Origin: Candidatus Peribacteria bacterium
Lineage (GTDB): Bacteria; Patescibacteriota; Gracilibacteria; UBA1369; 2-02-FULL-48-14
Assembly (NCBI GenBank): GCA_943354505.1
Contig: CALRCE010000001.1
Coordinates: 15,528-79,527, forward strand
Length of the DNA stretch: 64,000 bases
Reading direction: 5' to 3'
This document shows, piece by piece, positions 209-64,000 of the stretch (the stretch's first letter is position 1; each line of letters begins with the position of its first letter). The notes below the pieces were generated by a model that made no database searches, was not told the origin of the DNA, and was given only the letters and a program-made list of their open reading frames with translations. A program made the position numbers and the translations under genes.

Positions 209-445
209 TTACTTCGAAGTTGATTCCTTGAGCAAACCTTGATCAACAGTCCGCTGACGTTCATCACGGATTCGCTGAATAAATGACTCCAAACTTTGAG
301 GCCTAGAAAGCTCTAAAAGCTGATCTTCAGAAACAGCTAGATCAAAGGCCTCAGGGACGGTGACGTTGTCAAAAACATCTCCAAATTCTTCACGGAAGCC
401 AGCCGTGTTTCTATTACGAATGCAATACAAAGTCACATGGGCCAA
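209..445 (-). CDS. hypothetical small protein (78 aa), last gene of the LOG/TrpF-like/GCHII-like operon
   Basis: ATG at 445 overlaps the stop of the upstream gene by 13 nt. The composition is protein-like (acidic/helical). I recognise no motif. Confidence 0.4.
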   Translation of the reverse strand: MAHVTLYCIRNRNTAGFREEFGDVFDNVTVPEAFDLAVSEDQLLELSRPQSLESFIQRIRDERQRTVDQGLLKESTSK

Positions 446-1614: not shown

Positions 1615-2393
1615 TGAGTTTTTGAAAGATTTAAAGCTTGATAAGCGGCTCCATAAAAACGGAGAGCTGCTTGCGGATCAAGAGAATCTCTTATGCGCAC
1701 AGCGGACTCCGTATCCACACTGATGGGTCGTCCAGGAACAATCGAACTAGCAGTGGCAAAAATGCTTGCCACATTGGCTTCCGACAATCCACCTGCAAGA
1801 GCTAAACCAACTTCGGGCTCCAAAGCAGCAAGGCGGGGCAAAAGATCCTGCAAGGTGCTTTTGTCTAAAACCTCTCCTCTACCCCCCGATAGGTCAACCA
1901 AAACATGAGCAACAAGGCCTCTACAGGCACTTAAAAATTCATCCACCCTTCCTGCTTCCACAAGACCCAAGTGCAAAGGAGCAATCAAACCATATGAAGG
2001 GTTCCACAATTGATCCCGAACAGGTTCTAAATCTTCTGCTCGAACTCCATTGAGCTGCACTGAGTGAATTCGATCAGGCTTTTCAATCCGTTCCATCAAG
2101 TCATAAAGTGCCCCACGAGGGTCTGTGCCACTGGTGGTCATGTCAAAATGCAAAGAAGCCATGGCTGAGGAAGGAACTGCTGCAATCAAACGATTCAAAG
2201 TACCCAGATCTGTGACCTTGCGAGGCGAAGGGGGTACGCGTCCTTCCAAAGTTCCTCGATCCACCGCAAACCCAATCAAAGGAATATGACCTTGAGGATG
2301 AGGCCACTGCAGGTCACCCAAACCCGCACCCACCGTTCGAACTTGGTCTTCAGTTTCGAAGGCACTAACGGCAATGTACGGAGAAGACTTCAT
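1611..2393 (-). CDS. phosphoribosylanthranilate isomerase (TrpF)-like TIM-barrel protein
   Basis: 260 aa. PRAI-like motifs: IHSVQLNG (cf. VQLHG), VLVDLSGGRGEVLD (cf. LLD..GGtGk.fdW), LALAGGLSEANV (cf. LAGGL.peNV), SVDTESAVR (cf. VDvsSGVE). No other trp genes are in the window. Confidence 0.6.
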   Translation of the reverse strand: MKSSPYIAVSAFETEDQVRTVGAGLGDLQWPHPQGHIPLIGFAVDRGTLEGRVPPSPRKVTDLGTLNRLIAAVPSSAMASLHFDMTTSGTDPRGALYDLMERIEKPDRIHSVQLNGVRAEDLEPVRDQLWNPSYGLIAPLHLGLVEAGRVDEFLSACRGLVAHVLVDLSGGRGEVLDKSTLQDLLPRLAALEPEVGLALAGGLSEANVASIFATASSIVPGRPISVDTESAVRIRDSLDPQAALRFYGAAYQALNLSKTQ

Positions 2394-2417
2394 GGTTTGA
2401 CAAAATAAGCTGAAATT

Positions 2418-4646: not shown

Positions 4647-4662
4647 AAAACAAGAAGAGAAG

Positions 4663-4691
4663 ACTGTAAAGTGGACAAGAAAAGAAATCAA
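4663..4691 (-). promoter_or_regulatory. candidate sigma70-type promoter of the LOG operon (TTGATT-N17-TACAGT)
   Basis: On the minus strand, -35 TTGATT is at 4691-4686, the spacer is 17 nt and -10 TACAGT is at 4668-4663. This lies about 16 nt upstream of ATG 4646. Confidence 0.35.
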
Positions 4692-4753
4692 GATCTTTGA
4701 CAAAAAAAATAAATGCGCCAGAATAAGAGACTTCAGACACCGAAGCCAACTAA

Positions 4754-5491
4754 ATGACTCCCAACGAATCGACCATAGAAAGTCTTGCGCATTCTGCTAA
4801 AGAAACCTTAGTGACTTTAGCAACAGATCTCTCCACAATCCCCGGCTTTGTGGATGCCTTCGCCACCTACGTGGCAGGAATTTGGGCGACCAGCGATTTT
4901 GCAAAAATGCGCGGAGCTCAAGGGTTAGGAGAAGAAAAAGTAGGATCTGAGTATGCAATGGCAGGCTGCGTTAAGTTTGCGGTAGCGGGTGGCACCAATG
5001 CACTCCTTCGAGGAGATTTCATCAATCTACTCTCTCAAACTCCCTTTCTGTTGGGTAGTTTTGCAGAGTACCTTGAACATCACCCTGAACTTCTAAAAGA
5101 TTCGCGTGTCAAACGTGCCTTCATAATACTGGGTTCTCTACCCGGAGTTCTAGCCACCAGCGCAGCAACAGGAGGTTTAGGCCTAGCCGCAAACATGGCT
5201 TCTGGAGAGTTTGAAGACCACCCCGCAACCTCTTTAGTCAAAGTACTGGGGTTCGGGGTTTCTCAATCGGGCTATGCCTTGAGAGAATCGAAAAACGGAC
5301 TGGCAAAAGGACTCGCGCACACCTTTGGAAACGGCATCATTGCAGTCGTGAGCTTTTTAGAAATTTTATACAAAATTCAAGCAGGATTACCCGTGAATCA
5401 CGCCTCTATATTTTGGGGAGTATCCTCCACAGCAAACACTTGGAACTCAGCAAAAGGTCTCGTCAAAGAAGGTCAGAGATTGATTGGATAA
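4754..5491 (+). CDS. hypothetical protein (245 aa, Gly/Ala-rich hydrophobic segments)
   Basis: Clean ATG ORF divergent from the LOG operon. No recognisable motif. Confidence 0.55.
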   Translation: MTPNESTIESLAHSAKETLVTLATDLSTIPGFVDAFATYVAGIWATSDFAKMRGAQGLGEEKVGSEYAMAGCVKFAVAGGTNALLRGDFINLLSQTPFLLGSFAEYLEHHPELLKDSRVKRAFIILGSLPGVLATSAATGGLGLAANMASGEFEDHPATSLVKVLGFGVSQSGYALRESKNGLAKGLAHTFGNGIIAVVSFLEILYKIQAGLPVNHASIFWGVSSTANTWNSAKGLVKEGQRLIG

Positions 5492-12863: not shown

Positions 12864-13266
12864 TGCTTCCGCGTGATCGCGAAGTTCTGGCCTTGGTCAA
12901 AACTTCGAGGAAAGTCCGAGCAAGATCAGGCAGGAAAGCCGCTAACGGCGGCCGTGCGTTGACCTAAAAAACAGCGCATAGGGAAAGTGCCACAGAGACG
13001 AGTAACGTTAAACGCCCCCTCTGCTAGAGCCCTCGGGTTCGGGCACGGGGAGCCCCTTCGTAAGGAGGACGGCTCGGTAAACCCTTTTCCTTGCAAGGTG
13101 AGATTGGAGAGTTGGAATCGGCGGCCTGTCGCCCCAATTCGCTCACCGCCACGAGCGCTTCAGCAATGAAACGCCCAGAGAGATGATCACGACCGAAGGG
13201 GAGTGACCCGAGCGTAAGCGAGGGATCACCACCATTCGGTACAGAACTCGGCTTATAGGAAGCACC
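12864..13266 (+). ncRNA. rnpB: RNase P RNA, bacterial type A
   Basis: P4 strands GAGGAAAGUCCGAGC (12907-12921) and ACAGAACUCGGCUUAU (13241-13256). Conserved modules GGGAAAGUGCCACAGAGA and GGUAAACCC are present. P1 UGCUUCC/GGAAGCA pairs 12864-12870 with 13258-13264, P2 is GUGAUC/GAUCAC, and the P3 hairpin is GAAGUU...AACUUC. End positions are accurate to a few nt. Confidence 0.9.
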
Positions 13267-13275
13267 ATCAAAGAG

Positions 13276-15806: not shown

Positions 15807-16892
15807 TTAGAACCTGTCCACTAAACGGGCCACGGTGAGGAGTGAATTCTTATTTTCAGCGGTAATATAGCTGGTGGAATATTCTTGAGGTTTGCAGCCA
15901 TTCGGTCCTGCATAAGCACCTGCGATAGCTTGATACGCTCCGCTATGCTTTAGTGAGAATTCTCGCATAACAGCCGCTGGATCAGATCCTAGTTGACGAT
16001 CTGCAATTCCCTTAAGGGATTCACTTACTTGAATCCCACTGTTTAAAAATTTTGCCGCACGACAGTCCGTTTCAGGGAATTGAACGCTCACTTTGAGCGT
16101 AGTGGCCCCATTTAAATCGATATCAGCAACCCAGGAGACAGCTATGCTGGGAGAAAGCGCGCCAGTAGATACTTTTTTGCGAATTCCCAACCCTCCGGCA
16201 ACGATATAATCCGTAAGGAAATCGCCGTCATCAACATGAGCAGCAAAGACCCAATTGTCTCTTAAATATTTTGAGTTATCCCTCCCACCACTGATAGTGA
16301 CCGAGTAAGGGCTCCAAGCCTCGTAAGTCAATCTCATCCCCACTGCTTCTTTTGGTTGAACTGGAAAGCCAATCGGAGCACTTAGGTCCCGCCAAACCAA
16401 AAAAGTTTTACCGCGCCCTTTTTCATGAGTGCTTGGCCCTGTCCATTGTCCATCGTATTTTGGATCTAATATCTGCAGAAAATCTTCATCCAGAAAACGG
16501 GTTACTCCCAATGGCAGACCTGGTCCACCAGACTCATTGAGCACTTCTGCAGCTATTTGAGCAAAGGCAAGGGTCAGTGCAGTAGGTTCCGACGGAACAG
16601 AGTCTGTGGGTTCTGAAGTAGAATACATAGCCAAAGGGCCCTCTCCCGCTTGACCACGAACAAACATGGCATCACCACCACTCAATGCGGAAGAGTTGTA
16701 TTGGTTCAAACTCTCCAACAAATCTAGTAACCTCCATCTTTCTCCGATATCACCAATGTCAAACCATTCTAGAGCCAAACCCGCTTTCGAAAGTTCACGC
16801 GAAACACGCAGGGTTTCTGGCTTTGCCGCCACATCATTTGCCAGTGTGGCTAGAAGGGCGACGGTCCCTAAGGTGGCAATGGGTGCTTTCAT
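15807..16892 (-). CDS. hypothetical secreted protein
   Basis: 361 aa. Signal peptide MKAPIATLGTVALLATLANDVAA/KPE. No motif recognised. Confidence 0.7.
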   Translation of the reverse strand: MKAPIATLGTVALLATLANDVAAKPETLRVSRELSKAGLALEWFDIGDIGERWRLLDLLESLNQYNSSALSGGDAMFVRGQAGEGPLAMYSTSEPTDSVPSEPTALTLAFAQIAAEVLNESGGPGLPLGVTRFLDEDFLQILDPKYDGQWTGPSTHEKGRGKTFLVWRDLSAPIGFPVQPKEAVGMRLTYEAWSPYSVTISGGRDNSKYLRDNWVFAAHVDDGDFLTDYIVAGGLGIRKKVSTGALSPSIAVSWVADIDLNGATTLKVSVQFPETDCRAAKFLNSGIQVSESLKGIADRQLGSDPAAVMREFSLKHSGAYQAIAGAYAGPNGCKPQEYSTSYITAENKNSLLTVARLVDRF

Positions 16893-23166: not shown

Positions 23167-23987
23167 CTCTCTTGCTTCAACTTTTCAAGACACGCCAGAA
23201 AAGCAGGTTTTTGTCGCACCCAATCCGATCCATAACGCCCCGCACGAACAGAAGCTTCCACTTCCAAAAAAGCAATCTTATGAAGCTCGCACCATTCTTT
23301 AAAAGTGCCCGTCTGCTCCAAAGCCACCCATTCTTCATTCGAAACAAAAGAGAAACCACTCTGCTTCGAAAAGATTTTAGCCAGCTTTTGTGCGCGTGCA
23401 TCCAAAGACGGCATCACGTCCTCACCCACATTGTGAAGCATGAACAGCACTTCAATTTTTTGTTCCAAGGCAAACTGAGTGAGGGCCTTGGTCTCGGGCT
23501 CACTGCCCCCCTGCTCCCCACAAAAAACCGGCGTTCGTTCTCGATAATTTTTGCCGTGATTCCAATGAGATTCCTTCTTGAAACTAGACACGGGAAAGTT
23601 GCGGTTCAAGTCCACGCCCTTGCCATTGAAGCGCCCTTTTCGTCCACCATGCGCATAGTCGGGATGAGCCAGCGCCTGCGCAAAACCATCGGGGTTGAGA
23701 CAGGGCACAAACCAAAAAGTGAAATCTATAAACTCCTCCGAGTGATCCTTGATCCAAGCGTAGAGGTGAACCAAAGTACGACGCGTCCCCACTTCATTCC
23801 CGTGAATGGCCGCCACAAACAAAACCTTCTTGGCACCCGAGTTGATTCGATACGCCCCAATCCGTCTACCTTCGTGGGAAGTGCCCAAACGCAGGGTCTC
23901 TTCCGCCAAAAGCTCTGGGATAGGCTCCCACTGATCCTTCAAATAACCACGAGCAATTCGATTAAAAGTTTTGAGAAGATTTTTCAT
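23163..23987 (-). CDS. M14-family zinc carboxypeptidase (MpaA / gamma-D-Glu-meso-DAP peptidase-like)
   Basis: 274 aa. Zinc motif AAIHGNEVGT (HxxE), GVDLNRNFP, and LHN as the third ligand region. No signal peptide. Its stop overlaps the lysA stop by 4 nt (CTAG). Confidence 0.8.
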   Translation of the reverse strand: MKNLLKTFNRIARGYLKDQWEPIPELLAEETLRLGTSHEGRRIGAYRINSGAKKVLFVAAIHGNEVGTRRTLVHLYAWIKDHSEEFIDFTFWFVPCLNPDGFAQALAHPDYAHGGRKGRFNGKGVDLNRNFPVSSFKKESHWNHGKNYRERTPVFCGEQGGSEPETKALTQFALEQKIEVLFMLHNVGEDVMPSLDARAQKLAKIFSKQSGFSFVSNEEWVALEQTGTFKEWCELHKIAFLEVEASVRAGRYGSDWVRQKPAFLACLEKLKQES

Positions 23988-23997
23988 AGAAAAAGTG

Positions 23998-24294
23998 TTA
24001 TTTTTTCAAAATTTTCACCTCATTTTCTAAACGCTCATTTAAAAAATCCTTCTGCACTTCCAAATCGTAGTGACTCTGCGCATTCATCCAAAACTGCGGA
24101 CTCATCCCAAAGTATTTCGCAAGCCTCAAGGCCGTATCAGCAGAAACAGCTCTCTTCCCTAGCACGATCTCATTGATGCGCCTTGGGGGAACACTGATGT
24201 CTTTGGCCAACCGGTATTGGCTGAGCCCCAAAGGTTCAAGAAATTCTTCAAGCAAGAGTTCACCAGGATGGATGGGAGGGATGGTTTTCTTCAT
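23998..24294 (-). CDS. higA: HigA-family antitoxin (XRE helix-turn-helix)
   Basis: 98 aa. IHPGELLLEEFLEPLGLSQYRLAKDISVPPRRINEIVLGKRAVSADTALRLAKYFGMSPQFWMNAQ is the classic HigA/VapI pattern. No HigB ORF is present upstream. Confidence 0.85.
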   Translation of the reverse strand: MKKTIPPIHPGELLLEEFLEPLGLSQYRLAKDISVPPRRINEIVLGKRAVSADTALRLAKYFGMSPQFWMNAQSHYDLEVQKDFLNERLENEVKILKK

Positions 24295-24296
24295 AA

Positions 24297-24334
24297 GGAT
24301 CAGTGATCCCAGGAATCATAACGTATAGCGTTAT
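24297..24334 (-). promoter_or_regulatory. two palindromes upstream of higA (candidate operators)
   Basis: GGATCA-G-TGATCC at 24297-24309 (2 nt from the ATG) and ATAACG-N5-CGTTAT at 24318-24334. Confidence 0.3.
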
Positions 24335-24399
24335 TATTGGTCAAGGTACGTGGAAACACACACCATAGCTAGCTGGTCGTACTGAATTTCACACGAAGC

Positions 24400-24428
24400 T
24401 TGCAATTTTCACAAGCACTACATAAAAT
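24400..24428 (+). promoter_or_regulatory. candidate promoter TTGCAA-N17-TAAAAT inside the toxin-antitoxin spacer, opposite strand
   Basis: -35 at 24400-24405, 17-nt spacer, -10 at 24423-24428. Confidence 0.5.
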
Positions 24429-24434
24429 ACAAAC

Positions 24435-24486
24435 ACAATGGCCATCGGCCAACTGAGGAGCCTCTGAAAAGGGGCTCCGTTTTTTT
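24435..24486 (+). ncRNA. candidate ~50-nt small transcript (contains 9-codon ORF MAIGQLRSL) ending at an intrinsic terminator
   Basis: The predicted TSS is about 24435. The terminator stem GGAGCCUC/GGGGCUCC spans 24457-24478, followed by a GT7 tail to 24486 that overlaps the stop codon of the convergent toxin gene. The micro-ORF is 24438-24467, and its stop lies inside the hairpin. Confidence 0.35.
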
Positions 24487-24877
24487 AATTCAAAACAAGA
24501 CCAATGATTTTATCTTGAACTCTTGCATACTCATCCAAGCTGATCTTTCTAACATACCTAAGAAATCGCTTAACACTCACTAATCGCAGTTGTGAAAGAA
24601 TAAGCACAGACCTTTTATTGTCGTAAGAAAGTGTATGATAATACTTTCCCTCCTTCAGATGACTCGTCATAGGTAAAACCCAAGCAAGCTTTTCATTGAA
24701 TTTTTTAAAAACTAAGACTGGCCTTTCAAAAAACCAGTTCTTGCCACTTTGTTCTTGGCCTAAGTTTTGCCCCAAGCTACACCACCAAATTTCACGTTCG
24801 TGAAAAGGCAAGGTCTCACAACCGTACTCTTCAAGATACTTCTTTCGCCGATTCCAACCATCAAAATCTTTTTGCAT
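24485..24877 (-). CDS. PemK/MazF-family toxin (long N-terminal variant), no cognate MazE-like ORF upstream
   Basis: 130 aa. DGWNRRKKYL...EREIWWCSLGQNLGQEQSGKNWFFERPVLVFKKF...LPMTS...SVLILSQLRLVSVKRF matches the MazF/PemK pattern (G.iww...G.E..G....RPvLV...P.TS...Q.R..s..R). Confidence 0.75.
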   Translation of the reverse strand: MQKDFDGWNRRKKYLEEYGCETLPFHEREIWWCSLGQNLGQEQSGKNWFFERPVLVFKKFNEKLAWVLPMTSHLKEGKYYHTLSYDNKRSVLILSQLRLVSVKRFLRYVRKISLDEYARVQDKIIGLVLN

Positions 24878-24972
24878 AATCCTTATTGTACGCAGAAAGA
24901 CCTGAATCGCAGATTCATGCAGACGGGCACCATCGAAGATGGTCGTGCTGACATTTCTCTGAAATATTTCAG

Positions 24973-29792: not shown

Positions 29793-30572
29793 ATGACACA
29801 CGCAACAGGTCATGACGGAGATGAAGAAACGCCAAAACCTCAAACAGACGTAGAAAAAGGGGCCGCTTTGACAAAAGAAGCATTAGCAAACCCTGAAGTC
29901 CAAGGAAAGGTAAAGATGGTCTTGGTTGAAGGTGGACTTGCGCTTAAAAAACGCGCCGAGACTCCTGGAACAAGACAGGCTTTGGCAAAGAAGCTTCTCG
30001 ACGCAATGACCGCAGAAGAACAAACAAAATTCATTGAAAACACACACACCTGGACTCATAACGCCAAAGAATTCATGCTGGACCGCCTCACAGTGGGAAT
30101 TCGCCCTCTATGGAAATTAGCCGCACCCAGCATCCTACCTGAAGAGTGGGCAACCATTGAAAGCTTTAAAGAAGAAGAAATCAAAGGGTATATCGCTCTC
30201 GGAGCTATGGACGTAGAAGAAAGTGTCGCCAAACTGGTGGACACGGATCTGAAAGATAAAGCAAAAATGCTAAAAGTGATAGGATGGCTCTGCAATCTGA
30301 TTCCAGAGATTGGAGTAGAGCTTGCCGAAATCATTGGAACCATCGCTCACCTTGCTGAAGCTCCCGCTGCCTTCCTCGAAAAAGTACTTCCCGAAGTGCG
30401 TGAAGCGGTACGAAACGGTGGAATTGTAGGCGAAACAATCACAGCAGAAAGGGGGGAAATAAATGCAACCGTCCCACCCAGCCTAAAATTGATCAATACA
30501 CCTCCAGAGACGAAAGCGCCCAAACCAGTTGTGGGTCCAAGCACAGCTGCTGCGATCAAAAAAGCAGCCTAA
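29793..30572 (+). CDS. hypothetical protein (259 aa)
   Basis: ATG ORF behind a good promoter. Helical, Lys/Glu/Ala-rich, no motif recognised. Confidence 0.6.
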   Translation: MTHATGHDGDEETPKPQTDVEKGAALTKEALANPEVQGKVKMVLVEGGLALKKRAETPGTRQALAKKLLDAMTAEEQTKFIENTHTWTHNAKEFMLDRLTVGIRPLWKLAAPSILPEEWATIESFKEEEIKGYIALGAMDVEESVAKLVDTDLKDKAKMLKVIGWLCNLIPEIGVELAEIIGTIAHLAEAPAAFLEKVLPEVREAVRNGGIVGETITAERGEINATVPPSLKLINTPPETKAPKPVVGPSTAAAIKKAA

Positions 30573-44089: not shown

Positions 44090-45322
44090 TTAAAGTTTTC
44101 CTGTTTGATGCAACCTCAACAAAAAGTTCGGATACGCAAAATCGATCACAAAAAGAGGAGCTGTCACGCTTGCTTTCCAGCGACCCGTATGGGTGTGCAT
44201 GGATCTTGGCATAAGGATAGGAGCTGAACCTCGAATCAAACTTTCATACTCAGGAGCAACGACCAACTCTCCAGTAAAACCCAGCTCTTTAAGCAAAACC
44301 GTCCATCCTCTCTCATGTTGACGGCGAGCCCCTCCCTCAGCAGGGATCATCAAACGAAGTGCTCCTTCTTGATTTCCAAGGGCAACCGCCTCACGGACAC
44401 GACTCAAAGAAAGTTGCGCCACATTCGGAGTTTCAGGGACAGGTGACTCCACAGGAAGGTCTTCTTTAACAGAAGGTCTTCTCGACCCAGGAACAGAAGG
44501 AGTTTGCCGCACGGCTTCTGGTCGCACTGTCTCGGATTGAATTGAACTTGGGCTAGGAAGAACTCCAGAAGAAGTTTTGGGCTCCACTTCATCAATACGA
44601 GCTTTCAATCGACCCAACTTAGATTTACAGCGAGCAATCATCGCCAGTTTTCTTTCCAGTCGTTCCAACTCCATCAAAATAGGTCCAATTTCAGCAAAAA
44701 TACGTTGAAAATTTTGGATATTTCTTTCTGAAACTATTCTCAAATCGGCCTCACTCCTGAAGCGTTTCTTGGGCAAAAGACCCCTAAGTTCAGGAGGCAA
44801 CAGGGGCTCGACTAAAATAAGTTCTAAGGCATCTTCCAATCTATCCATTTCTCGAGTAATCTCTTCAACTCTTTTCCCACGACGCTCTTGAGCACGATCC
44901 AAGGTCCGCCGCCGTTTATCCAATTCACTTTCAGAAGCAACCAGTCTTAACAATTCAGCATACTGGGCACGGCTTACCTCCAAAACATGTTCCTTGGGGG
45001 CTCTCATCACACGTCCATGCTTTTCTCGAAGAACAGCAATGGGTTTAGGCTGTCCAAAAAGAAAGAGTTGGTTCAAGAGCCGAGATCCAAAGTCCTCACT
45101 AAGAGCCGCGAGTAAGTCCTCTTCATCAGGAAACTCCGTCTGCGCCAAGGCAACACCTTGGCTCGCACGAGACCACAGCAGTATCACAGGAGAGAGCTCT
45201 GTCTTCCCCCTTTCCCGAAGTTCGAGCAAGTCAGGGACAAAAGATTTGGCCACAATAAAACGATTACGATATGAAATCTTAACACGAAAGCTAGATTTGT
45301 AAAGATGCTCATGCCCTAACAA
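44090..45322 (-). CDS. hypothetical protein (410 aa, Arg/Glu/Leu-rich coiled-coil centre)
   Basis: The only long ORF here. TTG start with no in-frame ATG nearby. No motif recognised. Confidence 0.55.
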   Translation of the reverse strand: MLGHEHLYKSSFRVKISYRNRFIVAKSFVPDLLELRERGKTELSPVILLWSRASQGVALAQTEFPDEEDLLAALSEDFGSRLLNQLFLFGQPKPIAVLREKHGRVMRAPKEHVLEVSRAQYAELLRLVASESELDKRRRTLDRAQERRGKRVEEITREMDRLEDALELILVEPLLPPELRGLLPKKRFRSEADLRIVSERNIQNFQRIFAEIGPILMELERLERKLAMIARCKSKLGRLKARIDEVEPKTSSGVLPSPSSIQSETVRPEAVRQTPSVPGSRRPSVKEDLPVESPVPETPNVAQLSLSRVREAVALGNQEGALRLMIPAEGGARRQHERGWTVLLKELGFTGELVVAPEYESLIRGSAPILMPRSMHTHTGRWKASVTAPLFVIDFAYPNFLLRLHQTGKL

Positions 45323-45509: not shown

Positions 45510-45584
45510 TGGTGATCCCACGGAGAATCGAACTCCGATTTACAGGATGAAAACCTGTTGTCCTAACCGTTAGACGATGGGACC
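45510..45584 (-). tRNA. tRNA-Glu (anticodon UUC), CCA encoded
   Basis: 75-nt cloverleaf read by hand: acceptor GGUCCCA/UGGGAUC (one G-U), D stem GUCU/GGAC, anticodon stem ACAGG/CCUGU with loop UU-UUC-AU, T arm CGGAG-UUCGAUU-CUCCG, discriminator A, CCA. Confidence 0.92.
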
Positions 45585-55363: not shown

Positions 55364-56221
55364 CTAAGTCGGCCTATAGAGAGCAACGAACTGATCAATG
55401 AAGCGCTTGTCCGTCGTCATATCCGCCTCACTACGTAAAGTCCAGTCACTGGGACTCGCCTCTTCGTTTTCAATCAGACTCAAATGAGCCAGTCGTTCAT
55501 GCTCCGTACAAAGTCCATGCAGCCTCGCAGGGTCGTGTACTTTTTCGAGCCCCCAACGTTGCGTATGATGAAGCGAAGTCGCCACTTTCACACAGCCAGG
55601 GTAGGCACACAGTCCACCTGAACGTGAGCGAACCTGGCGCTGAATGTGAAGAGGAATGTGACGAGACGAAGTTTTCACCACCTCAGGAAGATCAGTAGGT
55701 TTTTCTGAAACCCCAGCAAGCAGTTTTTCCATGAGCTCTTCCCAAGTGCCAGCTCCTTTGAGTCGTTTCAACTTTTCAACCATCGCCGGTGACAAATCGA
55801 TGGTGAGTTTTACAGATTGAGTTTCCGTACTAGTACGGGATTCCAACCTATAGTTTTTCACATAAGTCTCTAAAGTATTCTTAGACATGGACTTGGCCTT
55901 TTCCGCCCAAAAATCTTGGGTTTCGAGAGTGACAACTCCTAGAACAGGTCTGACTCGATTAACGCCAGCAACTTCGATCACCGCTTCCAACGCCGGAAAA
56001 GTTTCCACCTTTTTCATAATACGAAGGCCATCTTCCACCGTAGACCGACTCATCCCTACCAACTTAGCCGCATATTCGAAAATACTACCGAAACCCTTTT
56101 TATGCCAAATTTCCCGACGTTCGATCTCAGGCAAAAGCAGCACACATTTGCGCATCCACTCTCGGGCATTTTGGCCATACTCAGAAAACTGCTGATGAAG
56201 TTGTTGGTCTTTTTGATCCAT
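55364..56221 (-). CDS. HNH endonuclease domain protein
   Basis: 285 aa. The C-terminal HNH module is IPLHIQRQVRSRSGGLCAYPGCVKVATSLHHTQRW...HDPARLHGLCTEHERLAH. Helical N-terminal region. Confidence 0.85.
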   Translation of the reverse strand: MDQKDQQLHQQFSEYGQNAREWMRKCVLLLPEIERREIWHKKGFGSIFEYAAKLVGMSRSTVEDGLRIMKKVETFPALEAVIEVAGVNRVRPVLGVVTLETQDFWAEKAKSMSKNTLETYVKNYRLESRTSTETQSVKLTIDLSPAMVEKLKRLKGAGTWEELMEKLLAGVSEKPTDLPEVVKTSSRHIPLHIQRQVRSRSGGLCAYPGCVKVATSLHHTQRWGLEKVHDPARLHGLCTEHERLAHLSLIENEEASPSDWTLRSEADMTTDKRFIDQFVALYRPT

Positions 56222-57393: not shown

Positions 57394-57816
57394 ATGAACA
57401 CCCAAGTCTTCATCAACCTTTGCGTCTCCGACCTTCCAAAATCCATGGAGTTTTTCAAAGCTCTCGGATTCACGTTCAACCCACAATTCACCAACGACGA
57501 AGCCGCCTGTTTGCAGATCTCAGACACCATCTTCGCCATGCTCATCACTCCCGCTCGCTTCAAAGACTTCACAAAAAAGGAGATCGTGGACGCTAAAAAA
57601 TCCACCGAAGTGCTCCTCGCCCTCTCCTTTGAAAGCAAAGACCGCGTAAATGAGATGGCAGACAAAGCCCTCGCTGCAGGTGCAACAATCGCCCGCGAAC
57701 CTGAAGACCACGGTTTCATGTTCGCCCGGGCCATCCAAGACCTCGACGGACACATCTGGGAATTCTTCTGGATGGATCCGAATCATGTGCAGCTCACTTC
57801 AAAACCAACGACCTAA
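57394..57816 (+). CDS. VOC/glyoxalase-bleomycin-resistance family protein
   Basis: 140 aa. FINLCVSDLPKSMEFFKALGF...DLDGHIWEFFWMDP is the typical VOC beta-alpha-beta-beta-beta pattern. Confidence 0.85.
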   Translation: MNTQVFINLCVSDLPKSMEFFKALGFTFNPQFTNDEAACLQISDTIFAMLITPARFKDFTKKEIVDAKKSTEVLLALSFESKDRVNEMADKALAAGATIAREPEDHGFMFARAIQDLDGHIWEFFWMDPNHVQLTSKPTT

Positions 57817-59562
57817 AACAGGCCTCACGCCAATAGGATATTCCCCTCTCCAACCTGGAGCAGAGGAATCCATTGGAGACTTTAAACAAAACCGACCAAG
57901 GCTTCTATCGTGGGGCAGATAGTTGGTAATGACCTGAACACGGTCAGAAGCTAAGGTACCTGTATCTTGGGAAGTAAATCCACGTGTCTCCTTGGGTCTT
58001 GTCAGAGTGACTTCGCAATCTTCATTGTATCTTTCTCTCTTAACGGTAGTGAGAAGGCCATTGCGCTCAAAGAATGACCTCACGTGACTCAAACAATCCC
58101 TGTGCATTACGTCGATTTCTTGAAGAGTGTGAAACCCTTTAGCTACAGGTAATTTCCTAAGTTGTTCCATCCCCGCATTGGGATCTCTCAGCATCGTCGC
58201 GCCCAGAGCTTGGAGGGCTGCATTTGAACACTGAGCACTCTCAGCAGGAGAAAGGAAGCCCGCTTTGAATAAAAAATCCCGCAGCTCTCTGGCCTGCACC
58301 ACCACATTTTGTTCACGAGTGGAAGGAAGGTGACCCGGCATAGACATAAGCCAGTGAGATTCCTCACCCATGCTCGGGTTTGCAGGGAGGTAAATTAAAT
58401 TGGCACCCAACTTAACTCCTCTTTCTATTTCTTGAGGGTTCGGAAAGGTTTTAGGAAGCACTGGATCCACACCCTCTTTCATAAGTAAACCCAGTTCAAA
58501 GGGTCCTACAAATCTTTCTCCAAAGGCTTTATGAGCGGCTTCCCATCCATGGCTTTTAGCGTACAAAAGTCCAGCCTCCATTCTTTTTGCCTTGACCCGT
58601 TCAGGCATTGAAGGCGAAGCGGTGTCTAAGTCTGCAAAAAATCCATCGACAAAGGTTTCCTCTTCAGTCATCCACTCCAAACGATTCTTAGGAGTTCCTT
58701 TCTCGGGAAAAGGCACGGGGATAGAAAGCCACTCATTGGCCGCCAGAAGAGGCGTTAAGGTCGGCAAGCGACGCATAGAGTCAAACTCCCCTAAGAACAC
58801 TCTAAGAACAGCAATTCTTCTTCGCATCTCCTCCAAGTCCAAAGTACCACCTTTGAGGGAGTCTAAAGCATGGAGGAACGAAAGGAAAAGAATAGCTCCT
58901 TTCTGATAACCATTTTGTTCGTCACGACTGCGATGAGAGACTGTACCTCTCGCCTCTGAATGATCCGCCCTTCGCTGAGCATCCAAACTAAAACGTCCCC
59001 ACGGATTCTCGTGAAGGTGTGCAGCTGCTTGGACTAAATCGACGAAAGTGGTGTAGTCATGAGAAGGACCTCTCCTAGCCACTTCTTTTAAAAGGGCCAA
59101 CCGATAGGTCTCCAATTCAGCAGTCTGGGATTCTACTTCCACAGACTTTGAAACCTCTGAGACAGTAACAGAAGTTGCTCTCTGTTTAGTACTATCGCTA
59201 AGCTTCCCGACTTCTGCAGGCAATCCAGTAGACCCAACAACCTCCACAAGACGATCACCAGTCTTGATGTGCACACGCATTTCCCGAGCCGCATCATCTG
59301 CATAGTAGTAGGACCAACCTTCCTTTCCATCGGCATACACAGCTAAACGCCCATTAACGGTAATAGGAACATCACGAAAAAAATAATGGGCCCGAAACCA
59401 GAGGTATGTATAGAGAGGATGATCTTGATCTAAAACAAAACGTCCATCAGTTAAACAGTGAGCCCTTAAAAAAGCTCTACCCCCAGCAGTATCAGCAGTG
59501 CCCTTCAAAGAGCTGGGAGTAATATCTTCGAAAGACTGTGGGGTTAATGGAATGGGCCTCAA
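57799..59562 (-). CDS. hypothetical protein (587 aa), translationally coupled to the GT-kinase gene
   Basis: The TTG start overlaps the upstream TGA (TTGA at 59562-59559). No signal peptide or TM segment, no motif recognised. Confidence 0.6.
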   Translation of the reverse strand: MRPIPLTPQSFEDITPSSLKGTADTAGGRAFLRAHCLTDGRFVLDQDHPLYTYLWFRAHYFFRDVPITVNGRLAVYADGKEGWSYYYADDAAREMRVHIKTGDRLVEVVGSTGLPAEVGKLSDSTKQRATSVTVSEVSKSVEVESQTAELETYRLALLKEVARRGPSHDYTTFVDLVQAAAHLHENPWGRFSLDAQRRADHSEARGTVSHRSRDEQNGYQKGAILFLSFLHALDSLKGGTLDLEEMRRRIAVLRVFLGEFDSMRRLPTLTPLLAANEWLSIPVPFPEKGTPKNRLEWMTEEETFVDGFFADLDTASPSMPERVKAKRMEAGLLYAKSHGWEAAHKAFGERFVGPFELGLLMKEGVDPVLPKTFPNPQEIERGVKLGANLIYLPANPSMGEESHWLMSMPGHLPSTREQNVVVQARELRDFLFKAGFLSPAESAQCSNAALQALGATMLRDPNAGMEQLRKLPVAKGFHTLQEIDVMHRDCLSHVRSFFERNGLLTTVKRERYNEDCEVTLTRPKETRGFTSQDTGTLASDRVQVITNYLPHDRSLGRFCLKSPMDSSAPGWRGEYPIGVRPVLGRWF

Positions 59563-62120
59563 GATGAAAGGTTATTATAAGCTTTTAACAAGTCCTCAAG
59601 CATATCCGCCATATTCCGATATCTACTAGAGATTATCGGATTTATACCCTTTTTTAAAATTTTTCTAACTGAAGGAGCTACGCCACTAGGCATTTCAAAG
59701 TTACCTGTAGTATGGAGTTGAGCTAACTTCAAATTCCTTTGACTAGCTTCAATATCCGCAACTTGCGAAAAATACGGAGACTGGCCGGTTAACAGAAAGT
59801 AAAAAGTACAACAAAGCTCATACGTATCTACTGATGTATCAAGGGTAACGCCTTCTCTCCCCAATTCAGGAGGTGAAACATGACGGTTCATACCTTCAAA
59901 ACCACGCACAAACGACCCTTCATTAGATATAGAGACATCATCCAAATCTCCTACGATTACATCTCCATTAAATCCGACTAAAACATTATGTGGAGAAATA
60001 TCAGCATGCAAAACTCCTTCATCATTTAAATCCCTAATCGTAGAAGCAATTCTTATAACCACTTCCAAAGCTTTTTTCGTATTCAGAGGACCATGCCTTT
60101 CGACTACTTTTTCTAAATCTGTAGAAGCAAGTGTATGAACCTGAATCAATTGACCGTCAACCGGGTCCGTTACTAACAAAGGAACATCTAAATGAGGGTC
60201 AGAAATACCTTTCTTTTGAGCATAATCAAAAATATTTTGAACCCCGCTAGGATACTTATTTGCACGTGCAACAAAAGCTCTTTCCTCAGCAGAAAGGATT
60301 TTCATAGCTACAAGTTCATTTGTACGAGAGTTGTATCCATAGTAAACAGACCGCGTAGAAGCGCCTAAGAACCTATCCTTACACATTACGTAGTCTTCGT
60401 TAACATGTATCTTCTCATGGCTTGCTTGTAGATCTGCGAGCGTATATCTAGGAACAGTTGACCTGAACACAGGCTGTGAATGAGCATAGTTGAATGCCCC
60501 CAAAGCTCGATCCAATCTCCTGTTTCTTCTCCTTTCAGTATCTTTTCTACGTTTTTCTCTAAGGTCCTTCAGTTCTTTGGCTGCAGCTGCATCACCAGAC
60601 TTGGCTTTCTGGATCAAGGGTCCTTCAACTTGGTAAACCTTAAGCCCATTCACCAAACGATCCATATTTGTAACCACTACCTTCTCCTTGCCACCAAGCT
60701 TCTCAACTTTGTACTCAATACCAAGCAAACCAATACATTTCCGGTACATCTTGCTTCCCTTGCCCAACCGGTCTCCAGATTCGTAAACGTCAACTGTCCT
60801 GTTGAGTACATTCTCAAGGTCCACTTTAAACTTCGCCACAACAGTTGGATCCTCATAATTGATTTTCTCTCCTGGTTTGAGTTCATAGGTTCTTACTGAA
60901 TCAAAAGCACCAAAACCAGCAACCCATTGTTCAACAGGAGACACTCCTTTTGCCACAGCTGCTTCAGAACGGCGTGCAGAAGAAAAGTTTCTCGTAGATG
61001 AAGAAGCTCCATGGGCAAGAGCATCTTTCGTTCCACGCGCTGAAACTATCATTTGTCCTATTAAAACATCTTCACCTCCACCCATCCGGGCATGTCCTCC
61101 AACGGCAGAGTAAATACTAGAACGATAAGCAAAATTAGCACCGCTGGAAGTCATTCCACCGGAACGAGATCTGCCATAAATACCTAAGTATTGGAAAAGA
61201 CGCGTTCCAATATGCACCATTGGATTGTTGGCATACGCCTCAAGATCCCAATCCAGTTCACCACGGATTGCATCTACATTTGGTTTCGCTGCAAAATCTT
61301 TAAGCATAGATCCAACATATTCCGGTGAAACACCTTTCATGTCGGCGTCATTACTCACCAAGATAAGATCTTTCGCTCCTTCTCCTCTTGCATGATGGCG
61401 GTACATAGCCACATCGTTAGCAAGCTTACGGATCGTACCTATTTTAGCTTCTGCAAGGGGAAAGACTTTGTAGATCACCCTAATGCGCATATCTGGATTA
61501 TCTTTTTGGAAACGCGCAATTTCATTCATGGTTTGATCGGGCTTCACCGCTCTTCCAGAAGGATCGACGTCCGGATGATTCACCATGAGTACAACTTCAA
61601 ACTTTTCCTTAGGAGCAGTTTGGTTTTTAAATCCCTCAAGAGTTCTATAGATATTTGCTCCTTCTTGGTGTCCAGCAACTGGAATACAAACTGAAAGTTC
61701 ACAGTTCGGGTCCATCTCGCCAGCCTCTTTGGAGAACCTCTCAACCTCTTTCATATAACCCTTTTCTTGTCTAGAAAAATAACCATCAATCTCCCTATAA
61801 TGATCCAGTTTCGCTTTCGGATCCCGCTTTAATGTCTCTGAACCTCTTCGTTTAAGAGCTGTCTTAGCATCTTCTGGAAGAGTTCCAATTTCATCAACCG
61901 AATCTTCGCCTTCTTCACCTTCGTATTTCTCTACATCAACCCGATCCACATCAATACCTCGAGCTCTCTGAGCAAAAGATTGAACGAATCCAACTACTGG
62001 GAAACCCGCTTGATCAAAAGAATCTGAAGGCGGTCCTTGCAGTGGGACATTCCTAGGGACAACAGGAGCGGCATCCAAACCCGTACGCTGACCATCATCT
62101 TGATGTTCATCCTCGTTCAT
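59559..62120 (-). CDS. fusion protein: GT-A (family-2-like) glycosyltransferase domain + C-terminal Hanks-type Ser/Thr protein-kinase-like domain
   Basis: 853 aa. GT-A features: LSVCIPVAGHQEGANIYRTLEGFKNQT...FEVVLMVNHPD, DxD LVSNDADMKG, GGGEDV. Kinase-like features: FLGASTRSVYYG (Gly-loop-like), VAMKIL (VAIK), HADISPHNVLV (HRDxKxxN variant, Asp and Asn kept), VGDLDDV (DFG-like), HVSPPE (APE-like). No signal peptide. Confidence 0.7.
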   Translation of the reverse strand: MNEDEHQDDGQRTGLDAAPVVPRNVPLQGPPSDSFDQAGFPVVGFVQSFAQRARGIDVDRVDVEKYEGEEGEDSVDEIGTLPEDAKTALKRRGSETLKRDPKAKLDHYREIDGYFSRQEKGYMKEVERFSKEAGEMDPNCELSVCIPVAGHQEGANIYRTLEGFKNQTAPKEKFEVVLMVNHPDVDPSGRAVKPDQTMNEIARFQKDNPDMRIRVIYKVFPLAEAKIGTIRKLANDVAMYRHHARGEGAKDLILVSNDADMKGVSPEYVGSMLKDFAAKPNVDAIRGELDWDLEAYANNPMVHIGTRLFQYLGIYGRSRSGGMTSSGANFAYRSSIYSAVGGHARMGGGEDVLIGQMIVSARGTKDALAHGASSSTRNFSSARRSEAAVAKGVSPVEQWVAGFGAFDSVRTYELKPGEKINYEDPTVVAKFKVDLENVLNRTVDVYESGDRLGKGSKMYRKCIGLLGIEYKVEKLGGKEKVVVTNMDRLVNGLKVYQVEGPLIQKAKSGDAAAAKELKDLREKRRKDTERRRNRRLDRALGAFNYAHSQPVFRSTVPRYTLADLQASHEKIHVNEDYVMCKDRFLGASTRSVYYGYNSRTNELVAMKILSAEERAFVARANKYPSGVQNIFDYAQKKGISDPHLDVPLLVTDPVDGQLIQVHTLASTDLEKVVERHGPLNTKKALEVVIRIASTIRDLNDEGVLHADISPHNVLVGFNGDVIVGDLDDVSISNEGSFVRGFEGMNRHVSPPELGREGVTLDTSVDTYELCCTFYFLLTGQSPYFSQVADIEASQRNLKLAQLHTTGNFEMPSGVAPSVRKILKKGINPIISSRYRNMADMLEDLLKAYNNLSS
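60538..61850 (-). repeat. copy A of a ~1.3-kb tandem paralogous duplication (GT-A module)
   Basis: It aligns without indels to 62182-63494 (constant offset 1644). It includes a 383-nt perfect-identity tract, 61441-61823 = 63085-63467, and a ~97 percent tract at 60542-60678. One hand-aligned flanking stretch gave about 83 percent (50/60). Confidence 0.9.
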
Positions 62121-62174
62121 ATCTATGAAAAGTAAAATGAAGTAAGACTAAACACACATGTAACTTAGGCCACT

Positions 62175-64000
62175 TTAAGTCGTACCTTTTCTACGTTTTT
62201 CTCTAAGGTCCTTCAGTTCTTTGGCTGCAGCTGCATCACCAGACTTAGCCTTCTGGATCAAGGGTCCTTCAACTTGGTAAACCTTAAGCCCATTCACCAA
62301 ACGGTCCATATTCGTAACCACAATGGTCTCCTTTCCACCAACAACATCCACTTTGTACTGAATACCAAGCAGTCCAAGACATTTACGGTACATTTCAGCT
62401 CCCTTGCCTTGTTTCTCTCCTCTTTCATACTCATCAATTGTCCTGTTCACAACATTCTCAAGGTCCCCTTTAAACTTGGCTAAAGTAGCCGGATCATCAT
62501 AGTTGATTTTTTCTCCAGGCTTAATTTCGTAAGTCCTTACTGAATCAAAAGCACCAAAACCAGCAACCCATTGTTCAACAGGAGATACTCCCTTTGCCAC
62601 AGCTGCTTCAGCGCGTCGGGCAGAAGAAAAGTTTCTCGTAGACGAAGATGCTCCATGAGCAAGCGCATCTTTTGTACCTCTCGCTCCAACAATCATTTGA
62701 CCTATTAAAACATCTTCGCCTCCACCCATCCGGGCATGTCCTCCAACGGCAGAGTAAATACTAGAACGATAAGCAAAGTTACCTCCACTGGAAGTCATTC
62801 CACCGGAACGAGATCTGCCATAAATACCCAAGTATTGGAAAAGACGAGTTCCAATGTGGACCATTGGATTACTAGCATAAGATTCTAAGTCCCAGTCTAG
62901 TTCACCCCTAATCGCATCCACATTGGGCTTAGCATCGAAAGACTCAATCATAGCCTCAATATATTTTGGTGAGATACCTTTCATGTCGGCATCATTACTC
63001 ACCAAGATAAGATCTTTTGCTCCTTCACCTCTCGCATGATGACGGTACATAGCCACATCATTTGCAAGTTTACGAATGGTTCCAATTTTAGCTTCTGCAA
63101 GGGGAAAGACTTTGTAGATCACCCTAATGCGCATATCTGGATTATCTTTTTGGAAACGCGCAATTTCATTCATGGTTTGATCGGGCTTCACCGCTCTTCC
63201 AGAAGGATCGACGTCCGGATGATTCACCATGAGTACAACTTCAAACTTTTCCTTAGGAGCAGTTTGGTTTTTAAATCCCTCAAGAGTTCTATAGATATTT
63301 GCTCCTTCTTGGTGTCCAGCAACTGGAATACAAACTGAAAGTTCACAGTTCGGGTCCATCTCGCCAGCCTCTTTGGAGAACCTCTCAACCTCTTTCATAT
63401 AACCCTTTTCTTGTCTAGAAAAATAACCATCAATCTCCCTATAATGATCCAGTTTCGCTTTCGGATCTTTTTTCAAAGTTTCAGACCCTTGACGTCTAAA
63501 CATCCTCATTGCATCTCGATCTGATCCACCAGAAAGGTAAACGCTATTAGAGCGCTTCTGAACACCTCCCCACGCTCTCAAACCAAGCACAACTCCTGCG
63601 TCGTGAGCCCAACTTCTCCAAGTTTCAGGTTCTTCCATGGCTTCAGCTTGAGTCTTACTGATCAAACCGGGATACCTACCAAAAGGTGTATCCTTTTCAG
63701 TAGCAAGCCACTGTTGAGCTTCACCCACTTTATGCATGGCAATCACTTCGGCAGTGATTTCAGCAGCACTTGCACCCGCTTGACCAGCAGTAAAGCTAAG
63801 GCGTCCCAGAGGGACAGTGGGTCCCATTTGAGAAAGGGCAGCATTCGCGTCTCCAATACTACGACTCACTCTTCCCAATTGATCAATAGGATTGAGTTTA
63901 GACAAAGCAGGTCCTCCTTTGGCCGCAAGAGCGGCACGTTGAGCACCCACCGTTTCTCCACGTAAGAATTGTTGAGTCTTACCAAGGGCATACAAAGTCA
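62175..64000 (-). CDS. GT-A glycosyltransferase-like paralog without kinase domain (5' end probably beyond the window)
   Basis: The frame is open to the window edge (the track start TTG 63995 is probably not the real start). The central region is near-identical in protein sequence to the neighbouring gene (DPKAKLDHYREIDGYF...LVSNDADMKG...). It ends KRRKGTT* exactly where the neighbour continues into the kinase module. Confidence 0.7.
   Translation of the reverse strand, partial: TLYALGKTQQFLRGETVGAQRAALAAKGGPALSKLNPIDQLGRVSRSIGDANAALSQMGPTVPLGRLSFTAGQAGASAAEITAEVIAMHKVGEAQQWLATEKDTPFGRYPGLISKTQAEAMEEPETWRSWAHDAGVVLGLRAWGGVQKRSNSVYLSGGSDRDAMRMFRRQGSETLKKDPKAKLDHYREIDGYFSRQEKGYMKEVERFSKEAGEMDPNCELSVCIPVAGHQEGANIYRTLEGFKNQTAPKEKFEVVLMVNHPDVDPSGRAVKPDQTMNEIARFQKDNPDMRIRVIYKVFPLAEAKIGTIRKLANDVAMYRHHARGEGAKDLILVSNDADMKGISPKYIEAMIESFDAKPNVDAIRGELDWDLESYASNPMVHIGTRLFQYLGIYGRSRSGGMTSSGGNFAYRSSIYSAVGGHARMGGGEDVLIGQMIVGARGTKDALAHGASSSTRNFSSARRAEAAVAKGVSPVEQWVAGFGAFDSVRTYEIKPGEKINYDDPATLAKFKGDLENVVNRTIDEYERGEKQGKGAEMYRKCLGLLGIQYKVDVVGGKETIVVTNMDRLVNGLKVYQVEGPLIQKAKSGDAAAAKELKDLREKRRKGTT
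62182..63494 (-). repeat. copy B of the tandem GT-A duplication
   Basis: See copy A. The offset is 1644 nt, and 63085-63467 is identical to 61441-61823. Confidence 0.9.

Follow-up and report, generated by a model that had tools for sequence, protein, structure and literature searches.

A possible effector-like locus built around a shared glycosyltransferase module in a Candidatus Peribacteria bacterium

Three genes at the end of a 64,000-nucleotide stretch of Candidatus Peribacteria bacterium DNA (contig CALRCE010000001.1; hereafter the window) encode two large proteins, A and B, that share a divergent glycosyltransferase (GT) module, and a 587-aa protein whose gene overlaps that of A. Here we describe this cluster and propose that it is a hypervariable, accessory and polymorphic effector-like locus which would have an interaction-directed function, a reading to which we assign a probability of roughly 0.4. 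Such a function is favoured because a conserved carrier ends in a swappable C-terminus, the module occurs on unrelated carriers, a downstream cassette holds a recombination tract, the locus varies among close relatives, and Sec signals are missing. The module is found at the end of a canonical region of ~850 aa, on the type of carrier seen in the relatives' contigs L076 and L079 (in B) and, in short forms, on no carrier.

How ultrasmall Patescibacteria manipulate host cells is largely unknown, and their type IV secretion systems (T4SS) lack known protein substrates (PMC12102498). The family of A and B offers testable candidates for interaction effectors, with a portable GT2-like module, frequent fusion to a kinase, a DUF5663 partner, occasional embedding among T4SS genes and swapping at the strain level. 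It also defines domains outside Pfam, namely the family-specific arms of the GT module, the ~850-aa canonical carrier, the L076-type carrier and a ~100-aa N-terminal domain of the 587-aa protein (the N-domain).

The initial annotation of the window had placed three co-directional minus-strand genes at 57799-64000, and our calls of open reading frames (ORFs) agree. They occupy its final 6.2 kb:

62175..64000, minus strand: gene B (3′ part), its frame still open at base 64000; the product ends ..RRKGTT*
59559..62120, minus strand: gene A, 853 aa; acidic N-terminal 87 aa, GT module, basic linker and Hanks-type kinase; a short form without carrier region
57799..59562, minus strand: 587-aa gene, TTG start; recurrent N-terminal domain of ~100 aa, then a lineage-specific, mostly helical remainder

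B and the giant proteins of close relatives

The closest relatives were taken as five contigs whose aldolases are at least 90% identical to the aldolase adjoining the cluster, with 10-21 kb fetched for each. All five keep the block ComEC-LytR-S11 peptidase-MraY-FecR/DUF5667-sigma-FBPase-aldolase-glyoxalase (contig L080 is cut within LytR), and this flanking block is 78-83% identical to the window in nucleotides (blastn; L076 and L079). Past the glyoxalase, where the contigs reach that far, the relatives carry clpB, with an SLH protein in addition in L079 and L080, and in L076, L077 and L079 a convergent giant orphan gene follows, coding for 1410 aa in L076 and 1573 aa in L079. The GT module, the kinase and the N-domain gene are absent from the 10-21 kb fetched from these relatives. 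Two features of the window mark the change:

57791..57799: synteny breakpoint, where nucleotide similarity to L076 and L079 ends at the 3′ end of the glyoxalase gene
63504..64000, minus strand: tail of the carrier region of B, holding the junction motif EPETWRSWAHDAGVVLGLRAWGG (shared form EPE.W.SWAHDAGV.L.LR..G), beyond which all three proteins (B and the giants of L076 and L079) diverge

The giants of L076 and L079 share residues 1-1140 at 40% identity and have unrelated C-termini. In alignment, residues 1-152 of B correspond to 995-1129 in the giant of L079 (39%, E 2e-15) and to 1008-1152 in that of L076, as far as the junction motif. From this alignment and its place in the block, B is the orthologue, by position and N-terminus, of the strain-variable giant protein, its variable C-terminal slot being filled here by the GT module, and a full length of ~1600 aa is expected for it. 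A and the 587-aa gene, both downstream, are additions peculiar to this genome. The part of B's N-terminus that lies in the window had no homologue in a search of 5.8 billion proteins or among the N-termini of the GT family, and the relatives were found through synteny alone. A search with its visible N-terminal 170 aa missed even B itself, so that B is probably truncated in the source assembly, where the contig ends. The L076/L079-type carrier matched nothing in Pfam, NCBIfam or the Protein Data Bank (PDB), and hhalign found no relationship between the L076 carrier and the canonical N-terminal region of the family.

A and B are joined by a long repeat, in which residues 73-528 of A and 150-605 of B are 89% identical across 456 aa and align ungapped:

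60535..61850: repeat copy 1 (in A); partner 62179-63494 in B, offset +1644, 87% nucleotide identity

Within it a run of 383 nt is perfectly identical (61441-61823 = 63085-63467), which indicates gene conversion between A and B. An independent ENA assembly of the same sample breaks within this run, the behaviour of a true two-copy repeat, and the ENA and Logan assemblies both break in the repeat of A. Between the two copies dS is 0.43, or about 0.6 if the converted tract is left aside, which means that they did not duplicate very recently, and a dN/dS of 0.125 shows that both are under purifying selection. All catalytic motifs are retained in both GT modules, and a neighbour-joining tree, itself weakly resolved, has A and B as sisters within a clade rich in GT-kinase proteins. 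By sequence, A is a GT-kinase cassette without a carrier, placed downstream of B and held close to it in sequence by gene conversion. The ..RRKGTT* end of B coincides with the point at which A runs on into its kinase, exactly as first annotated.

A second difference from the relatives lies within the flanking block. The segment 55325-56320 (~1 kb) is a strain-specific insertion, since L076 and L079 lack a counterpart and have FBPase and aldolase adjacent. It holds a 285-aa gene (ORF 55364-56221, minus strand) between FBPase and aldolase with a weak likeness to HNH endonucleases (PHROG/PADLOC, E~1e-3).

The glycosyltransferase module and its family

The shared module is about 430 aa long in the family:

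62178..63503, minus strand: GT module of B, a divergent GT2-type GT-A domain by prediction; motifs IPVAGHQE, SNDAD, SSG(G/A)NFAYR, GGEDV, SARR, EQW; weak TIGR03472 HpnI match
60537..61859, minus strand: GT module of A (residues ~88-528), from an AlphaFold2 (AF2) model and Foldseek

When 22 diverse modules are aligned, IPVAGHQE, SNDAD, SSGAN, GED, SARR and EQW are invariant; among them is the DxD-type NDAD (S-N-D-A-D), present in A and B. The AF2 model computed on this alignment (mean confidence, pLDDT, 89.5; predicted template-modelling score, pTM, 0.88) has a GT-A Rossmann-like alpha/beta/alpha fold. Foldseek returned 100 PDB matches at E<=1e-3, led by 6yv7 (PcManGT, E 8e-10) and followed by hyaluronan synthases (HAS), TarS, TarP, K4CP, BcsA and RmlT; the top 50 matches listed are GT2 only. 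No clostridial, Legionella or NleB-type toxin glycosyltransferase is among these 50, and the module is therefore GT2-like rather than GT44-, GT88- or GT8-like. Pfam has no match to the module of A or B. The relative P0048 passes PF13641 (Glyco_tranf_2_3; 32.9 bits against a cut-off of 27), and 18 of 36 long family members match PF13632 (Glyco_trans_2_3) weakly. A PDB sequence search with the GT profile gave one marginal GT2 entry (E 0.08) and nothing else. The fold, the DxD motif and the GT2 profile matches in relatives bear out the GT-A assignment made from the window at first, and the model points to a divergent GT2-type GT-A glycosyltransferase that is predicted to transfer sugar. A sugar-1-phosphate salvage pair, consisting of an anomeric kinase and a nucleotidyltransferase, was considered and judged unlikely, the fold matches being to GT2 transferases and the kinase having C-lobe features of protein kinases.

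The GT2 enzymes that Foldseek ranks best act on teichoic acids and polysaccharides, and this is where the main rival explanation begins. The cluster could belong to the producer's own cytoplasmic envelope chemistry, the GT decorating a wall glycopolymer, either lipid-linked or polymeric, as TarS, TarP or RmlT do, the kinase being a WaaP-like sugar kinase and the large N-termini serving as scaffolds. The kinase loop, H-x-D-x-(S/A/T)-P-x-N, lacks the Lys of protein kinases and is like the Brenner-type and WaaP loops, relatives give weak Kdo/WaaP and APH matches, and MraY, the S11 carboxypeptidase and an LCP ligase are encoded at a distance of 5-9 kb. However, the trio is missing from close relatives that retain those very envelope genes, the kinase keeps an APE-like motif and a C-lobe typical of protein kinases, and the family is rare and patchy. 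Nor is any gene for a flippase, an ABC exporter, another GT or the synthesis of NDP-sugars a conserved neighbour across its 65 loci; DUF5663 alone is. We consider this explanation unlikely; if it held, the family would represent an unusual glycosylation or phosphorylation step in the cell-wall polymers of the Candidate Phyla Radiation (CPR).

The search of 5.8 billion proteins gave about 120 clusters that share A residues ~80-510 at 30-50% identity. With one genome scanned for each of 185,579 species, 65 family loci were found, so the family is sporadic; it is spread over many CPR classes and apparently almost confined to metagenome-assembled genomes of Patescibacteria. Most are labelled Patescibacteria (Paceibacteria, Saccharibacteria, Microgenomates groups, Uhr-, Magasanik- and Buchananbacteria, Doudna- and Berkelbacteria), and some bear other 'uncultured' labels. 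In about 100 clusters the module forms the extreme C-terminus of proteins of 1250-1450 aa that have no hydrophobic transmembrane segments. The canonical N-terminal region of ~850 aa is common to 98 of the 103 long members, which form one similarity component, and it has no match in Pfam or PDB, the comparison of the long-family profile with PDB included. This sporadic distribution, together with the absence of the trio from relatives, supports the early view that the cluster is not housekeeping. Nor is the trio a conserved core-genome operon with a known envelope role, as the whole of it is missing at the syntenic position in the closest relatives and the family amounts to those 65 loci.

GT followed by kinase is the architecture of 16-17 of the 65 species-level loci and of several protein clusters; the family also includes GT-GT, kinase-GT and GT-APH-like proteins, as well as carrier-less short forms (A, P0003, P0021/22). 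Because the GT-kinase order recurs so often and the reverse order and GT-GT are known, the fusion is old and recurrent, and B ends where it does because the GT module naturally stops there in about 75% of family members. The suggestion of a recent domain fusion, drawn from the different ends of A and B, thus finds no support, nor does the dS of 0.43 favour it. The description of the proteins as orphans holds in general databases for the greater part of the 587-aa protein and for the N-terminus of B as far as it is visible; it fails for the GT module, with its 120 or so clusters, and for residues 1-110 of the 587-aa protein, a recurrent domain.

The family has a conserved genetic partner. A DUF5663 gene (~100 aa, helical, ending F(R/K)xxYLG) is present in 41 of 65 loci, nearly always 1-40 nt upstream of the GT gene among those listed (for example L009 7042-7347 and L010 3855-4253). 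This partnership is undescribed, and literature searches on DUF5663 and on Patescibacteria GT-kinase effectors gave nothing specific. The literature searched likewise holds no description of the family, of its modular behaviour or of the combination of GT and kinase, the domains themselves being of known kinds. Viral contigs of IMG/VR contain no relatives of the GT module.

Two further loci show unusual arrangements. In L003 (1483-7112) a GT-kinase gene (939 aa) and a kinase-GT gene (927 aa) stand in tandem with opposite domain order, adjoining a sortase gene. In L073 (5889-18333) a carrier-less GT-kinase of 722 aa lies amid four large co-directional orphan genes (1367, 898, 141 and 968 aa), and the block is flanked by V/A-type ATPase genes, those for subunit A to one side and for subunits F, AC39, C and I to the other.

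The kinase, the 587-aa protein and base composition

The C-terminal part of A carries a kinase domain:

59562..60443, minus strand: kinase domain of A (residues ~560-853); motifs VAMK, HADISPHN, DLD, PPE; Gly-rich loop degenerate

Pfam Pkinase matches residues 591-834 of A (E=4.6e-15, 56.2 bits against a cut-off of 31.7), and structures of PknB and StkP match at E~1e-12, the match extending as far as the C-lobe's end. When A and 22 other GT-fused kinases (23 in all) are aligned with PknB, the beta3 Lys (VAMK), the catalytic Asp (HAD), the Asn, the metal-binding Asp (DLD for DFG) and the APE-like PPE are all conserved. The Hanks-kinase fold that was first proposed is therefore sound, with the VAMK Lys, HAD Asp and DLD Asp in place. 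Judged by these residues, the domain is a genuine Hanks-type kinase, probably active though atypical, and its substrate could also be a glycan or a small molecule.

Similar matches raise the question of phage defence, for which kinase-based abortive infection in the manner of PD-T4-6, MADS MAD6 or Stk2 would be the model. PADLOC matches the kinase of A to its PD-T4-6 and mad6 models (E 5e-22 to 5e-13), PHROGs matches it to a Ser/Thr kinase family, and the locus is variable and low in GC3 (the G+C content of third codon positions). The matches are limited to the generic kinase core, however, and at 40 bits the NF047741 match lies below its cut-off of 460. In PADLOC neither the GT module nor the 587-aa protein has a match, no other defence genes stand next to the locus, IMG/VR viral contigs lack the family, and its conserved partners are DUF5663 or T4SS genes rather than restriction or abortive-infection genes. 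The proposal of a defence module, one of those made in the initial annotation, thus finds no specific support, and we regard it as very improbable.

The third gene follows A without a gap:

59559..59562, minus strand: TTGA start/stop overlap of A and the 587-aa gene, context cTTGAgg; the stop of A is TGA
59233..59532, minus strand: N-terminal domain of the 587-aa protein (residues ~11-110), T.EGR..LR...G.F.L...PLY...HHL(F/Y)R....VNG..A.Y..G.EG.(T/S)YYY..D...RV...TGD

The overlap of a TTG start with the TGA stop of the fusion gene had been read from the window together with translational coupling. The overlap is real, and the coupling is plausible, the 587-aa ORF possibly being started by termination-reinitiation at the TTGA. 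TTG is the sole canonical start for this ORF between an in-frame TAA (59572-59574) and the conserved domain, which begins at about residue 13. Shine-Dalgarno-like motifs are nearly never found <=25 nt upstream of the 40 large ORFs of the window, and the organism appears to start translation without them; their absence at the 587-aa gene is uninformative for this reason. A promoter and terminator scan gave counts not above those in shuffled sequence. A frameshifted fusion of A and the 587-aa gene was also considered and rejected: A stops at the normal C-terminus of a kinase in the PknB alignment, and two more assemblies, ENA and Logan, call the 587-aa product identically. Neither A nor the 587-aa protein has a transmembrane-like segment by Kyte-Doolittle hydropathy, the sole measure used, in agreement with the earlier statement for these two.

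A word-indexed search with the 587-aa protein returned only itself. Exhaustive HMMER over 1.84 billion representatives gave 15 proteins, in which the similarity is confined to residues ~5-125, and a metagenome scan for the N-domain gave only one contig, already known. The domain is repeated four times in tandem in P0131, stands alone in proteins of 131-137 aa, and elsewhere is N-terminal to YkuD L,D-transpeptidase or methyltransferase-like regions; none of the proteins bearing it has a signal peptide. YkuD is an enzyme class used elsewhere as an antibacterial effector (Tlde1 of the type VI secretion system). AF2 predicts the N-domain confidently as two helices and a small sheet (residues 11-110, pLDDT 92-97), and the other ~470 residues as helical with low confidence. 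The model has no meaningful Foldseek match and none in PDB, and Pfam and NCBIfam give no match either.

One of the N-domain proteins, P0132, comes from the same sample as the window. In L082 (7512-8447), another contig of the same ENA sample, a second protein besides the 587-aa one carries the N-domain, here joined to a methyltransferase-like region; it may be a paralogue from the same genome. An unusually long protein of 742-761 aa ending in Lysine_decarbox (LOG-like) occurs both in the window (2418-4703) and, in another metagenome, in L070 (3836-6064), there adjoining an N-domain-YkuD gene, which hints that the organisms are related.

The N-domain is absent from all other GT-family loci, so the pairing of the 587-aa gene with A is specific to this genome. 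This bears on a reading as intracellular signalling or regulation, in which the Hanks kinase and a protein glycosyltransferase would act on the producer's own proteins in O-GlcNAc-like crosstalk and the 587-aa protein would be a substrate or regulator. No export signals are seen, fusion of GT and kinase in both orders implies a shared substrate, and translational coupling to the 587-aa gene is plausible, all of which would fit. The 587-aa partner is nevertheless not conserved with any other GT-kinase gene, and presence or absence at the strain level, C-terminal swapping on giant carriers and occurrence in T4SS loci would be unusual for housekeeping regulators. Regulation of this kind seems quite unlikely to us.

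Base composition sets the cluster apart. In 400-nt windows G+C is 0.39 over 59400-60400, 0.42-0.45 in the GT parts and 0.47-0.49 in the 587-aa gene, compared with 0.50-0.56 in neighbouring housekeeping genes. The lowest 900-nt G+C window of the 64 kb is that at 59500 (0.39; mean 0.493, standard deviation 0.030). GC3 is 0.317 in A and 0.334 in B, the two lowest values among 41 ORFs (others: mean 0.548, standard deviation 0.09). By segment it reads as follows:

kinase part of A: GC3 0.29
GT part of A: GC3 0.35
587-aa gene: GC3 0.40
neighbouring aldolase / FBPase: GC3 0.58-0.63

The claim that the kinase part is compositionally foreign holds in so far as the dip is real and is the G+C minimum of the window in sliding windows; as a break confined to the kinase it does not hold, because low GC3 marks the entire cluster. 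The relatives' orthologous giant gene is likewise low (0.34-0.38), so low GC3 is a long-standing property of the locus and no proof of very recent import.

Elsewhere in the window GC3 is bimodal, ORFs in 433-5491, 15807-16892, 29793-30572 and 44090-45322 having 0.37-0.41 and most housekeeping genes ~0.6; the low group includes both Pfam-matching and non-matching genes. The second-lowest G+C patch (23800-24900, 0.41 in 900-nt windows) lies between an ORF ending at 23987 and an FtsK ORF starting at 24973. At the Rfam threshold the window holds a bacterial class A RNase P RNA (12864-13268, 145 bits) and a single tRNA gene (45513-45584), and no other family reached it.

Proposed function and comparison with known systems

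If the locus is indeed effector-like, B would be a giant carrier (~1600 aa) without Sec signal, its N-terminal ~1140 aa common to relatives and its C-terminal module strain-variable. The 1.3-kb tract with its 383-nt identical run would permit recombination between A and B, by which the kinase could be moved onto the carrier or the GT modules homogenised. The 587-aa gene would be translated by reinitiation at the TTGA, and its ~100-aa N-domain, which elsewhere stands ahead of L,D-transpeptidase or methyltransferase-like cargo, would be adaptor-like. The GT module would bind an NDP-sugar via the NDAD/metal site and glycosylate a target macromolecule, and the fused kinase would act either on that macromolecule or on the product. 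The proteins would act outside the ordinary metabolism of the producer, most probably on, or inside, a partner or host cell, following export by a non-Sec route, for which the candidate in other family lineages is the Patescibacteria T4SS.

These T4SS are widespread and relaxase-less, possess VirB2 arrays, have no known cargo and are regarded as co-opted to serve different functions (PMC12102498). Several family genes lie among such genes. VirB2-like pilin arrays are found upstream of the DUF5663-GT operon in L007, L010, L034 and L037; in L023 the GT gene is flanked by pilin-like genes. A gene for a TraD/VirD4-like ATPase directly follows the GT gene in L022 (4842-7598), L046 (4307-10645) and L053 (3023-8110). 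In L010 (3-16042) a 2290-aa GT-kinase gene stands between the pilin array and the gene for a VirB4 ATPase of the NCBIfam CD1110 family, whose score of 361 bits exceeds the cut-off (325). A further-reaching proposal, which we think somewhat unlikely, is that the GT module with or without kinase is the warhead of an unrecognised, recombination-shuffled Patescibacteria effector family, exported via a relaxase-less T4SS or other non-Sec route to glycosylate and phosphorylate components of the host bacterium in episymbiosis. DUF5663 would then be the dedicated chaperone or adaptor of the canonical carrier, the 587-aa N-domain would be a second cargo adaptor, and CPR T4SS would gain from the family their first concrete candidate substrates.

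Several observations weigh against an effector-like, interaction-directed locus. T4SS genes occur within 10 kb in only 9 of the 65 family loci, a raw count, and the 64-kb window holds no DUF5663, pilin, type IV coupling protein, VirB4 or other secretion gene. No trafficking domain of a recognised type (such as LXG, PAAR or Rhs) emerged from Pfam, NCBIfam or PDB for the carriers or the 587-aa protein, and no small downstream ORF of an immunity type is conserved with the module. The variable C-termini of the relatives are charged coiled-coil or low-complexity repeats with no obvious toxins, and would also fit a structural or surface protein. The structures nearest to the GT build or decorate glycopolymers and are not known glycosylating toxins. 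In the kinase the catalytic-loop Lys is replaced by S, A or T throughout the family (Ser in A, HADISPHN), and A alone has a degenerate Gly-rich loop (LGASTRS) and an uncertain alphaC Glu position, so that its kinase could be weak or atypical. Finally, the window holds only the 3′ part of B, its N-terminus and upstream lying beyond. Of the effector or toxin role first suggested for the cluster, the anatomy like that of polymorphic effector loci has stood; no secretion signal, immunity gene or target was found, and the role itself is one that we infer.

Compared with Hanks-type Ser/Thr kinases such as PknB and StkP, the kinase of A is alike in passing the Pkinase cut-off and in the alignment of the beta3 Lys, catalytic Asp, Asn, metal-binding Asp, APE-like PPE and C-lobe. 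It differs in having HAD for HRD, Ser for the catalytic-loop Lys, DLD for DFG and a degenerate Gly-rich loop, in lacking a transmembrane or PASTA sensor, and in being fused to a glycosyltransferase.

With GT2 enzymes (TarS, TarP, RmlT, PcManGT and the catalytic domain of HAS and cellulose synthase) the module shares the GT-A fold, the DxD (NDAD) and a GED-type motif after the acceptor loop, at Foldseek E-values of 8e-10 to 1e-5. Its sequence is only 10-16% identical to theirs, and its first-strand motif is IPVAGHQE instead of the usual IP.YN. Unlike them it has its own N-terminal helical arm (~55 aa) and C-terminal alpha/beta subdomain (~100 aa), is without membrane or trimerisation domains, and is placed at the end of giant proteins free of transmembrane segments.

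The glycosylating toxins, comprising the large clostridial toxins, Legionella Lgt1-3, SetA and LtpM, and NleB/SseK, are likewise soluble DxD GT-A enzymes, often within multidomain proteins, and those toxins are delivered into another cell; the module differs from them in being GT2-like rather than GT44-, GT88- or GT8-like. The glycosylating effectors of Legionella are T4SS substrates (PMC8961657, PMC6393602). In Patescibacteria, the MPF-FATA-like T4SS loci with VirB2-like pilin arrays resemble our case in that several family genes sit between or next to pilin arrays, VirB4 and VirD4/TraD-like genes. The difference is that the 64-kb window has no T4SS gene, and the words 'glycosyl' and 'kinase' are absent from the text of PMC12102498.

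From polymorphic toxin and effector loci with orphan cassettes (Rhs, CdiA-CT, LXG) the locus differs in having none of their trafficking domains or demarcation motifs and no small immunity gene, and in that the variable modules of the relatives are non-enzymatic. It is like them in its large conserved N-terminal carrier with a strain-variable C-terminus after a conserved junction, in its downstream carrier-less cassette sharing a recombination tract, in the lack of Sec signals, and in its variability among close relatives.

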